From Escherichia coli (lineage in GTDB: Bacteria; Pseudomonadota; Gammaproteobacteria; Enterobacterales; Enterobacteriaceae), in assembly GCF_003334785.1 (NCBI RefSeq), contig NZ_QOWV01000016.1: 64,000 nt of DNA. The stretch is one strand, 5' to 3'. Shown piece after piece: positions 5,902 to 8,308 of the stretch (position 1 is its first letter; each line of letters begins with the position of its first letter). Both the position numbers and the translations under genes were made by a program. The notes under the pieces were generated by a model. The model saw nothing but the letters and a program-made list of their open reading frames with translations. It ran no database searches and was not told where the DNA came from.

Positions 5902-7440
5902 ATGACCAATAATCCCCCTTCAGCACAGATTAAGCCCGGCGAGTATGGTTTCCCCCTCAAGTTAAAAGCCCGCTATGACAACTTTATTGGCGGCGAATGG
6001 GTAGCCCCTGCCGACGGCGAGTATTACCAGAATCTGACGCCGGTGACCGGGCAGCTGCTGTGCGAAGTGGCGTCTTCGGGCAAACGAGACATCGATCTGG
6101 CGCTGGATGCTGCGCACAAAGTGAAAGATAAATGGGCGCACACCTCGGTGCAGGATCGTGCGGCGATTCTGTTTAAGATTGCCGATCGAATGGAACAAAA
6201 CCTCGAGCTGTTAGCGACAGCTGAAACCTGGGATAACGGCAAACCCATTCGCGAAACCAGTGCTGCGGATGTACCGCTGGCGATTGACCATTTCCGCTAT
6301 TTCGCCTCGTGTATTCGGGCGCAGGAAGGTGGGATCAGTGAAGTTGATAGCGAAACCGTGGCCTATCATTTCCATGAACCGTTAGGCGTGGTGGGGCAGA
6401 TTATCCCGTGGAACTTCCCGCTGCTGATGGCGAGCTGGAAAATGGCTCCCGCGCTGGCGGCGGGCAACTGTGTGGTGCTGAAACCCGCACGTCTTACCCC
6501 GCTTTCTGTACTGCTGCTAATGGAAATTGTCGGTGATTTACTGCCGCCGGGCGTGGTGAACGTGGTCAATGGCGCAGGTGGGGTAATTGGCGAATATCTG
6601 GCGACCTCGAAACGCATCGCCAAAGTGGCGTTTACCGGCTCAACGGAAGTGGGCCAACAAATTATGCAATACGCAACGCAAAACATTATTCCGGTGACGC
6701 TGGAGTTGGGCGGTAAGTCGCCAAATATCTTCTTTGCTGATGTGATGGATGAAGAAGATGCCTTTTTCGATAAAGCGCTGGAAGGCTTTGCACTGTTTGC
6801 CTTTAACCAGGGCGAAGTTTGCACCTGTCCGAGTCGTGCTTTAGTGCAGGAATCTATCTACGAACGCTTTATGGAACGCGCCATCCGCCGTGTCGAAAGC
6901 ATTCGTAGCGGTAACCCGCTCGACAGCGTGACGCAAATGGGCGCGCAGGTTTCTCACGGGCAACTGGAAACCATCCTCAACTACATTGATATCGGTAAAA
7001 AAGAGGGCGCTGACGTGCTCACAGGCGGGCGGCGCAAGCTGCTGGAAGGTGAACTGAAAGACGGCTACTACCTCGAACCGACGATTCTGTTTGGTCAGAA
7101 CAATATGCGGGTGTTCCAGGAGGAGATTTTTGGCCCGGTGCTGGCGGTGACCACCTTCAAAACGATGGAAGAAGCGCTGGAGCTGGCGAACGATACGCAA
7201 TATGGCCTGGGCGCGGGCGTCTGGAGCCGCAACGGTAATCTGGCCTATAAGATGGGGCGCGGCATACAGGCTGGGCGCGTGTGGACCAACTGTTATCACG
7301 CTTACCCGGCACATGCGGCGTTTGGTGGCTACAAACAATCAGGTATCGGTCGCGAAACCCACAAGATGATGCTGGAGCATTACCAGCAAACCAAGTGCCT
7401 GCTGGTGAGCTACTCGGATAAACCGTTGGGGCTGTTCTGA
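5902..7440 (+). CDS. aldB: NADP-dependent aldehyde dehydrogenase B
   Basis: Track ORF starts at 5764, but the recognised AldB N-terminus [17 protein letters not shown] begins at ATG 5902, preceded by SD aggag 5891..5895; 512 codons. Confidence 0.9.
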
Positions 7441-7471
7441 TATAAGAAGCTGGTCGCATTGGGTATTCATT

Positions 7472-7554
7472 GCCTGATGCGACGCTTACGCGTCTTATCA
7501 TGCCTACGGGAACCTGACCGTAGGCCGGATAAGGCGTACACGCCGCATCCGGCA
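7472..7554. repeat. REP/BIME-type palindromic units downstream of aldB
   Basis: gcctgatgcgacgc...gtcttatcatgcctac and gtaggccggataaggcgtacacgccgcatccggca: the characteristic GCC(G/T)GATGCG / CGCATCCGGCA REP consensus halves. Confidence 0.7.
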
Positions 7555-7658
7555 TAAACAAAGCGCACGTTGTTACAATTTACGTTTTAAACCTACGTGC
7601 GCAATAACCCAGACTACGCCAACAGAAGTACGTTTCTGGGGCGTGTTTTGTCAGGAGT

Positions 7659-7871
7659 TTAATCTCGCGTTTCGATGGTGAGCGGGCGAACCAGGCCGTA
7701 AATCACCATTGGTGATCCGAGGCCAATCAGCAATAAACGGTAGATAATTGAAGGTTTAATACGCTTAATCTGTACTGTGGATGTTTTACTGGAGTTATTC
7801 ATTAGTTTGGCCAATAGTTCCACTATTTCAATATGATAAACCTCGTCCTGTTGAAAAACCAGACAGCACAT
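7659..7871 (-). CDS. hypothetical small protein (70 aa; hydrophobic C-terminal half), unassigned
   Basis: ORF in track only; no convincing SD at either in-frame ATG; sits between aldB and yiaW where I recall no annotated gene. Confidence 0.25.
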   Translation of the reverse strand: MCCLVFQQDEVYHIEIVELLAKLMNNSSKTSTVQIKRIKPSIIYRLLLIGLGSPMVIYGLVRPLTIETRD

Positions 7872-7984
7872 TTAAGAAAGTATATAAAAAACAATATGTC
7901 GTTATATAAATAAGGAAATTGCACTGCATCATGGCATTTCATAATATGCGTTAATTGTTCTTTTTTATATTCTTTGAGGGAAAT

Positions 7985-8308
7985 ATGTTCCTGGACTATT
8001 TTGCACTGGGAGTGCTTATTTTTGTATTTCTGGTGATCTTCTATGGGATCATTATTTTACATGATATTCCCTACCTGATTGCCAAAAAACGTAATCATCC
8101 TCATGCCGACGCCATTCATGTTGCTGGTTGGGTGAGTCTTTTTACGTTACATGTTATCTGGCCGTTTTTGTGGATTTGGGCCACGCTTTACCGCCCGGAG
8201 CGGGGATGGGGAATGCAAAGCCATGATTCATCCGTTATGCAACTGCAACAGCGCATTGCCGGGCTGGAGAAACAGCTCGCCGACATCAAATCCTCTTCTG
8301 CCGAGTAA
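7985..8308 (+). CDS. yiaW: small inner-membrane protein (DUF3302 family)
   Basis: 107-codon frame [21 protein letters not shown]... from ATG 7985 inside the 117-aa track ORF; followed 5 bp later by yiaV. Confidence 0.85.

Follow-up and report, generated by a model that had tools for sequence, protein, structure and literature searches.

The short open reading frame (ORF) on the minus strand between aldB and yiaW of Escherichia coli K-12 is probably a decaying relic of a longer gene, lying beside a second relic from a hicB antitoxin gene, and it would thus be a product of ordinary genome decay and not a new small protein. The longer gene, ORF104, encodes a 104-aa membrane protein with two helices (E. 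coli WP_001064341.1; UniProt A0A854BG15), of which 47 codons are left in K-12.

This reading would explain an unannotated stretch of the best-studied bacterial genome by two relics, ORF104′ and hicB′, that are lacking in the curated MG1655 annotation. PGAP spreads a 47-aa "hypothetical protein" over ~3,800 genomes that have the K-12-type spacer, and a remnant label would stop the ORF from being counted as a candidate small protein. More generally, it is a warning that clean ORFs left by in-frame deletions can mimic small-protein genes. ORF104 itself stands for an uncharacterised conserved two-helix family of at least 272 clusters at 50% identity, for which Pfam and NCBIfam hold no model. K-12 is a natural ORF104 mutant, so the function of the gene is to be studied where it is whole.

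The spacer between aldB and yiaW

We analysed a stretch of 64,000 nucleotides of E. coli DNA (contig NZ_QOWV01000016.1 of NCBI RefSeq assembly GCF_003334785.1), here called the window, in which position x corresponds to MG1655 position 3,762,413 - x. The genes are in the order yiaY, aldB (5902-7440, plus strand), the spacer, yiaW (7985-8308, plus strand), yiaV, and then yiaU on the minus strand. The spacer runs from 7441 to 7984, which agrees with the 544 bp given in a preliminary description of this DNA, and it is 100% identical to the spacer of K-12 assemblies. Nearly all of the elements listed in that description were found in it, and the region is AT-rich as claimed, with a GC content of 29-37% over 7700-8100. 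The description had considered this AT-rich region to be otherwise unexplained if its ORF were left aside, but it is covered by the divergent yiaWV promoter region and by the 5′ end of ORF104. Shimada et al. reported a constitutive yiaWV promoter and listed the spacer as bound by H-NS (PMC3946193). The features of the spacer are as follows.

7447-7556, no strand: REP/BIME cluster directly 3′ of the aldB stop codon, with a REP at ~7470-7507, an inverted one at 7519-7555, and an additional stem at 7447-7487
7556-7590, no strand: filler of 35 nt, which replaces hicA and most of hicB and holds the left arm of the palindrome
7563-7602, no strand: perfect 8-bp inverted repeat (the palindrome), GCGCACGT (7563-7570) and ACGTGCGC (7595-7602), with a 24-nt loop
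7591-7662, plus strand: remnant of the 3′ end of hicB, the last 23 codons of the antitoxin gene, reading TYVRNNPDYANRSTFLGRVLSGV and then the stop codon
7659-7802, minus strand: 47-codon ORF, an in-frame deletion allele of the 104-codon ORF104 (WP_001064341.1 type) that keeps residues 1-38 and 96-104
7686-7700, minus strand: deletion junction, a hybrid of two 15-nt imperfect direct repeats, located by alignment with full-length alleles
7803-7871, minus strand: upstream extension of 23 codons, with which the ORF reaches 70 codons; its coding is not conserved
7860-7888, plus strand: constitutive sigma-70 promoter of yiaWV, CAGACA-17-TATAAA (PMC3946193; motif located in the window)

The curated MG1655 annotation, including its small proteins, has no feature in the spacer. 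With respect to that record the ORF was rightly called unassigned, but PGAP does call the 47-codon version in other K-12-type assemblies, as hypothetical protein WP_001066080.1. A search of the spacer against Rfam at a permissive threshold gave sub-threshold REP-like matches alone, with no sRNA or riboswitch, and a signal scan of the spacer gave no minus-strand promoter and no terminator. The sole promoter-like match of that scan, TGGCCA-18-TATGAT at 7808-7837, is on the plus strand. A plus-strand ORF of 42 codons at 7781-7909 was dismissed, as it is broken by a 1-bp deletion in 2 of 11 strains (the L025/L031 allele). The papers examined on yiaW and YiaU make no mention of the minus-strand ORF, and the IS1 insertion reported there is inside yiaW and not in the spacer. 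In strain ECSD228 (NZ_CP150075.1) an IS1A is inserted in the spacer itself, a further sign that the spacer tolerates disruption.

The 47-codon frame and the deletion in ORF104

The preliminary description reported a minus-strand ORF with a hydrophobic C-terminal half, and this ORF, of 70 codons at 7659-7871, is present with the hydrophobic stretch that was quoted. An internal ATG at 7802 gives a frame of 47 codons. The homology search that had been proposed as a check matched the internal 47-aa product to ORF104, and the hydrophobic half of the ORF corresponds to a transmembrane helix. The idea that the frame comes from a real coding gene was thus borne out, with the internal 47-aa product being the relevant form. 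It did not turn out to be an intact gene that had been overlooked, since it is an in-frame deletion derivative that lacks 57 of 104 residues and in which constraint is undetectable.

Strains with a different spacer came up when 5,426 complete E. coli genomes were searched. One of them is E400634, where the order is aldB-hicA-hicB-ORF104-yiaW, with ORF104 (104 codons) on the minus strand. The K-12 product is ORF104 of this strain minus the 57 internal residues 39-95, so that ...VIYGLV/RPLTIETRD in K-12 aligns with ...VIYGLV CGVLGMFGYDQVRWND...GLWLYSLV RPLTIETRD in E400634. Residues 1-38 and 96-104 can be aligned, with 96% identity over the aligned residues, and the two frames have in common their start codon, their position and orientation between aldB and yiaW, and a stop codon that overlaps the hicB stop. 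They differ in that the K-12 frame has lost the end of helix 1, the loop, and helix 2 (residues 39-95) and shows no purifying selection.

The deletion, which K-12 shares with ~3,770 other E. coli genomes, is 171 bp long and in frame. Besides the end of helix 1 it removes the whole of helix 2, GLW.YS motif included, and the conserved loop FG.D.V.WN..HG. The N-terminal motif of the ORF104 family, K/R-R-I/V-K..IIYRLLLIGLG, is kept as residues 13-29 of the 47-aa frame. The family's loop, FG(Y/F)D.V.WN...HG, and the end of its helix 2, GLW.YS.FRPL, are missing from K-12, where the final RPL alone is left.

Full-length alleles contain imperfect 15-nt direct repeats at codons 35-39 and 92-96. In E. 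whittamii these repeats read TACGGCCTGGTTTGC and TACAGCCTGGTTCGC, with the common core GCCTGGTT. At the K-12 junction they are combined into a hybrid, a pattern characteristic of replication slippage or short-homology recombination, and we infer that one of these mechanisms removed the 171 bp. The truncated alleles have either Arg or Cys as residue 39, at the junction, perhaps because the crossover took place at two different points or because a C was later changed to T.

In line with the preliminary description, no recognisable Shine-Dalgarno sequence lies 5′ of the internal ATG nor, by direct reading, of the upstream ATG. Full-length Escherichia alleles of ORF104 also have none, yet they are under selection, so a missing Shine-Dalgarno sequence at the 47-codon frame is not decisive.

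Conservation of full-length ORF104 beside aldB

Outside E. coli, the gene is full-length and convergent to aldB in E. whittamii and Escherichia sp. E1V33, in three Kluyvera species and two Citrobacter amalonaticus genomes, and on several metagenomic enterobacterial contigs. Enterobacter kobei has an orthologue as well. The K-12 orientation, with ORF104 divergent from yiaW, is kept on those Citrobacter and metagenomic contigs on which yiaWV is present. There is no yiaWV in Kluyvera, in one C. amalonaticus genome, or on the contig L018, so aldB is the constant neighbour of ORF104.

The only available start codon in the Citrobacter, Kluyvera, and metagenomic orthologues is the Met equivalent to the K-12 internal ATG. 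In unsaturated pairwise comparisons, the dN/dS of full-length ORF104 is 0.02-0.05 within Kluyvera and 0.09-0.13 within Escherichia. The start codon of these synteny-conserved orthologues and a dN/dS of 0.02-0.13 show that ORF104 is a real protein-coding gene under purifying selection.

The gap between aldB and ORF104 in Citrobacter, Kluyvera, and contig L018 is 42-46 nt and contains one strong GC-rich hairpin, presumably a bidirectional terminator. On the other side of the gene, ~21-36 nt 5′ of the ORF104 start, is the motif TTTATCAT(A/G)(T/C)TGAAAT (window 7809-7830, minus strand). It is common to Escherichia and, partly diverged, to Citrobacter-type loci (equivalents in L011, L012, L013, L005, and L008), and it is absent from Kluyvera and L018, both of which have no yiaWV. 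The TTTATCAT motif overlaps the promoter-like TGGCCA-18-TATGAT mentioned above and could be a -10 element for either of the divergent genes.

Loss of constraint in the truncated alleles

Eleven E. coli spacers, picked for diversity and compared with no phylogenetic correction, contain 8 distinct alleles of the 47-codon frame. The 144-nt frame is open in all 11, including that of O157:H7, where PGAP makes no call. In this comparison, of the kind that had been proposed as a check on the ORF, the 47-codon frame is open throughout with no detectable constraint on it, and the 23-codon extension has a stop or frameshift in 3 of the 11. The 8 alleles have 20 segregating sites, 14 nonsynonymous and 6 synonymous, which is compatible with the neutral expectation of 15:5 (p = 0.61), and an omega of 0.1 (p = 1e-5) or 0.2 (p = 0.003) is rejected. 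For the same 47 codons in full-length Escherichia alleles, pN/pS is 0.09-0.17. From the low ratio in full-length alleles and the neutral ratio in truncated ones, we conclude that constraint was lost with the deletion. With only 20 substitutions, the fact that the 47-codon frame is still open is not evidence of selection.

Site diversity is 0.139 in the 47-codon frame, little different from the 0.176 of the upstream intergenic DNA. Gly27, which is nearly invariant in the ORF104 family, is changed to Val in O157, and public protein sets contain frameshifted variants of the ORF (P0022, P0025, and P0028) and a read-through variant (P0014).

The 70-codon form and the yiaWV promoter

The preliminary description treated all 70 codons (7659-7871) as the candidate gene, a reading to which we would give next to no weight. 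Although the frame is uninterrupted and ATG-initiated in K-12, and E400634 and E. whittamii likewise have an open in-frame extension upstream, the upstream ATG is replaced by GTG in 5 of 7 distinct E. coli sequences, and the extension has a stop codon in 3 of 11 strains, in two of them via a 1-bp deletion. The Citrobacter, Kluyvera, and metagenomic orthologues begin at the internal Met, and the upstream ATG (7869-7871) has no Shine-Dalgarno sequence and lies between the -35 (7860-7865) and -10 (7883-7888) elements of the yiaWV promoter.

An 18-nt AT-rich inverted repeat, 89% complementary, flanks the yiaW leader (7877-7894 and 7958-7975). Its left arm overlaps the published -10 element and its right arm is just 5′ of the yiaW ribosome-binding region. 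The repeat may be due to chance in AT-rich DNA or may be a regulatory structure.

The hicB remnant

The plus-strand remnant of hicB and the minus-strand ORF have overlapping stop codons, exactly as in the intact arrangement, which is found at the same site in E400634 (L002) and in JNEC-KY174 (L003). Compared by blastn with hicB of strain E400634, the remnant is 84% identical over 122 nt with a 12-bp gap; tblastn matches it to HicB residues 110-136 (E = 1.6e-6), and a local alignment of the remnant with hicB extends over 49 nt with one mismatch. When HicB of the aldB-linked hicAB (WP_000499744.1) is used as the reference, 7591-7662 aligns to its last 27 codons, alike in frame and in the position of the stop codon, and the part matched is a portion of the region that comes after the ribbon-helix-helix-like segment. 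What differs is that only 23 of 136 codons are left, with a 12-bp internal deletion, and that hicA, the promoter, and the N-terminal domain of HicB are lost. A HicB antitoxin has an N-terminal HicB fold paired with a C-terminal DNA-binding domain, and an upstream hicA; the remnant has neither the domain pair nor an upstream hicA and is, on alignment, a fragment of hicB and not a member of the family.

The aldB-linked hicAB is a type II toxin-antitoxin module that lies directly 3′ of aldB in ~500 of the 5,426 E. coli genomes (L002 1972-2584, L003 2778-3389). The hicAB of K-12 is another locus; of the aldB-linked module, the window has nothing but 7591-7662. In some genomes the hicA of this module is frameshifted (L003, probably L012). 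A metagenomic enterobacterium (L008 6640-7713; also L009 and L010) has, between ORF104 and aldB, a gene for a 357-aa protein with HSDR_N restriction-endonuclease-like domains. This is the slot that hicAB occupies in Escherichia, so the mobile or defence-type genes taken up at this one site differ from lineage to lineage.

The REP cluster, the filler, and the palindrome

The REP units reported in the preliminary description were confirmed as two or three REP-type stem-loops at ~7447-7556 (inverted repeats I1 and I3). The stretch 7441-7560 folds with -60 kcal/mol (z = -7.0). Imperfect palindromes of ~35 nt, inverted pairs, and genome-wide repetition, by which REP/BIME elements are recognised, are all found here. 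The Rfam naRNA4/REP matches are sub-threshold, and the REP part of the spacer recurs at several other places in most genomes. The filler that follows (7556-7590) has no similarity to the hicAB-bearing allele. E. whittamii has the same filler, REP, and hicB stump, the loop of its palindrome being longer by 16 bases, but its ORF104 is intact.

The palindrome is real and perfect, although the preliminary description had placed it at 7564..7600, 1-2 bases off its true position. It cannot be taken as an independent element, as its right arm belongs to the hicB coding remnant, where it forms the codons Tyr-Val-Arg, and its left arm is in the filler. It folds with -14.1 kcal/mol (z = -3.2), and about 0.25 inverted repeats of 8 bp are expected by chance per 544 bp, so that on its own the palindrome is only mildly non-random.

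We consider it improbable that the palindrome is a functional RNA or DNA element, the likeliest such element being a Rho-independent terminator of the minus-strand ORF104/ORF47 transcript. The stem pairs perfectly, each 8-nt arm has 6 G or C, and the energy is -14 to -15 kcal/mol; the stem is followed on the minus strand by a U-rich tract (UUUGUUUAU), and the ancestral terminator hairpin between aldB and ORF104 has been lost. Rho-independent terminators have a GC-rich stem, a loop of 3-8 nt, and a U-tract directly after the stem, and the loop here, with its 24 nt (in E. whittamii, 40 nt), is longer than is typical; the site is missing from the output of the terminator scan, and the minus-strand fold has a z of only -1.7. 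Both arms are kept in the 11 E. coli alleles and in E. whittamii despite the 16-base difference in the loop, and the one change, in O157, would still permit a G-U pair, but this is uninformative because the whole REP and filler stretch around them is conserved, with 6 variable sites out of 148. The right arm existed before as hicB codons, which means that half of the element was not built for a terminator role. The palindrome is most likely a fortuitous pairing of the filler with hicB codons, which would act at most as a weak minus-strand terminator.

Allele frequencies and rearrangement at the site

The frequencies of the different arrangements were obtained from 5,426 complete E. coli genomes.

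aldB 3′ end present: 5,356 of 5,426 genomes
K-12-type spacer at ≥ 80% coverage: 3,785 of 5,426 genomes
some part of the ORF present: 3,801 of 5,426 genomes
full-length ORF104: 28 of 5,426 genomes
hicAB at ≥ 80% coverage: 506 of 5,426 genomes
aldB-hicAB directly beside a GH127 gene, with no match to the yiaW side, as in L003: 490 of 5,426 genomes

In a further class of E. coli genomes, aldB is joined to the GH127 gene without hicAB. The aldB-yiaW site is a rearrangement hotspot.

Many E. coli genomes are without ORF104 and the yiaW-yiaV-yiaU-yiaT block, and in these a GH127 glycoside hydrolase gene and an MFS transporter gene sit next to aldB or to aldB-hicAB. Other enterobacteria have the GH127 and MFS genes beyond yiaT (L008), and in MG1655 the pseudogene ysaD is just beyond yiaT. 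Like annotated K-12 remnants such as ysaD, the 47-codon relic is a short piece of a gene found whole in other enterobacteria, and its surroundings have been repeatedly rearranged. Unlike ysaD, it is not labelled a pseudogene in the curated MG1655 record, and, the deletion being in frame, it can still be read as an ORF.

Proposed history of the locus and alternative readings

In the ancestral state, ORF104 would have been convergent to aldB, with a gap of 42-46 nt and a single GC-rich hairpin between them as in the outgroups. In Escherichia, hicA-hicB would have been inserted between aldB and ORF104, with the stop codons of hicB and ORF104 overlapping. REP elements and the short filler would then have replaced hicA and most of hicB, with the last 23 hicB codons staying behind. 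The hicB stump and intact ORF104 of E. whittamii suggest that the loss of hicAB preceded the deletion in ORF104. About 70% of E. coli genomes now belong to the lineage in which 171 bp would have been cut from ORF104 by slippage or recombination at the 15-nt repeats. The surviving 47-codon frame, with its N-terminus and most of helix 1 kept and the loop and helix 2 lost, would since have drifted neutrally, and we would attribute its being open to a deletion that was in frame and to too little time, not to maintenance.

It is unlikely, in our view, that the 47-codon frame is instead translated as a small inner-membrane protein with a new or reduced function, expressed divergently from yiaWV. Such a protein would be a plausible single-pass membrane peptide, since it keeps one hydrophobic helix with a basic KRIK flank at its N-terminus, and the truncated allele is the majority form, present in ~70% of the complete E. 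coli genomes. It is annotated as a CDS by PGAP. The curated MG1655 small-protein annotation does not include it. Its frame is open in every allele sampled (11), and the lack of a Shine-Dalgarno sequence is not decisive given the full-length alleles. Against it, the nonsynonymous-to-synonymous ratio of the truncated alleles is as expected under neutrality and exceeds by far that of these codons in the full-length alleles, and the most conserved motifs of the family (the FG.D.V.WN loop, HG, and GLW.YS.FRPL) are all deleted except for the final RPL. The replacement of Gly27 in O157, the frameshifted alleles that segregate in public data, and the listing of the spacer as H-NS-bound (PMC3946193) point the same way. 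As a short hydrophobic intergenic ORF that adjoins a toxin-antitoxin remnant, the frame might also suggest a type I toxin-like peptide whose antisense RNA partner would lie in the spacer, an idea that we rejected and that retains virtually no credence, because the frame descends from a longer conserved gene, that of a 104-aa housekeeping-type membrane protein. Rfam gave no match other than REP, there are no tandem or repeated copies, and the adjoining relic is of a type II module (hicAB) on the other strand. The 47-codon frame is most likely a relic of ORF104.

The ORF104 family

A profile search of 1.84 billion cluster representatives gave 272 relatives of ORF104 at E ≤ 1e-3, and among the matches listed nearly all are ~100 residues long and cover almost the whole ORF104 profile. 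Searches of NCBIfam and Pfam with the short and the long protein gave no family model. The gene neighbourhoods of distant family members showed no recurrent neighbour, so context gives no functional hint. The AlphaFold model of ORF104, made with a 49-sequence alignment, is a confidently predicted two-helix hairpin (pLDDT 83.7) with helices at 17-44 and 59-95 and a short structured loop between them.

Beyond its own orthologues, many of the best Foldseek neighbours of this model in AFDB50 are named "DUF3566 domain-containing protein," most of them with a TM-score of 0.7-0.85, although two-helix hairpins superpose easily. CofA, which has a DUF3566 domain, is a two-transmembrane cofactor of the class A penicillin-binding protein PBP1a in Corynebacterium (PMC7205459), and the modelled ORF104 would likewise be a two-helix membrane hairpin of ~100 residues. 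ORF104 differs from DUF3566/CofA in having no gyrase-linked context, and no link to a PBP in the neighbourhoods examined. A scan of 101 ORF104-family members with Pfam PF12089 gave no match at E ≤ 0.1 (0/101; best E = 2.2). The resemblance of the predicted fold to DUF3566 is a lead only. A long shot would be that the ORF104 family is distantly akin to CofA/DUF3566 and that the 47-aa micropeptide spread to ~70% of E. coli through an activity of its own; if translated, it would possibly still dock to the partner of ORF104 via helix 1.

Mobile or variable DNA carries members of the family too. One of 100 aa (P0030; L021-L023 5001-5303) ends a chaperone-usher fimbrial cluster and adjoins transposase fragments and a group II intron reverse transcriptase.
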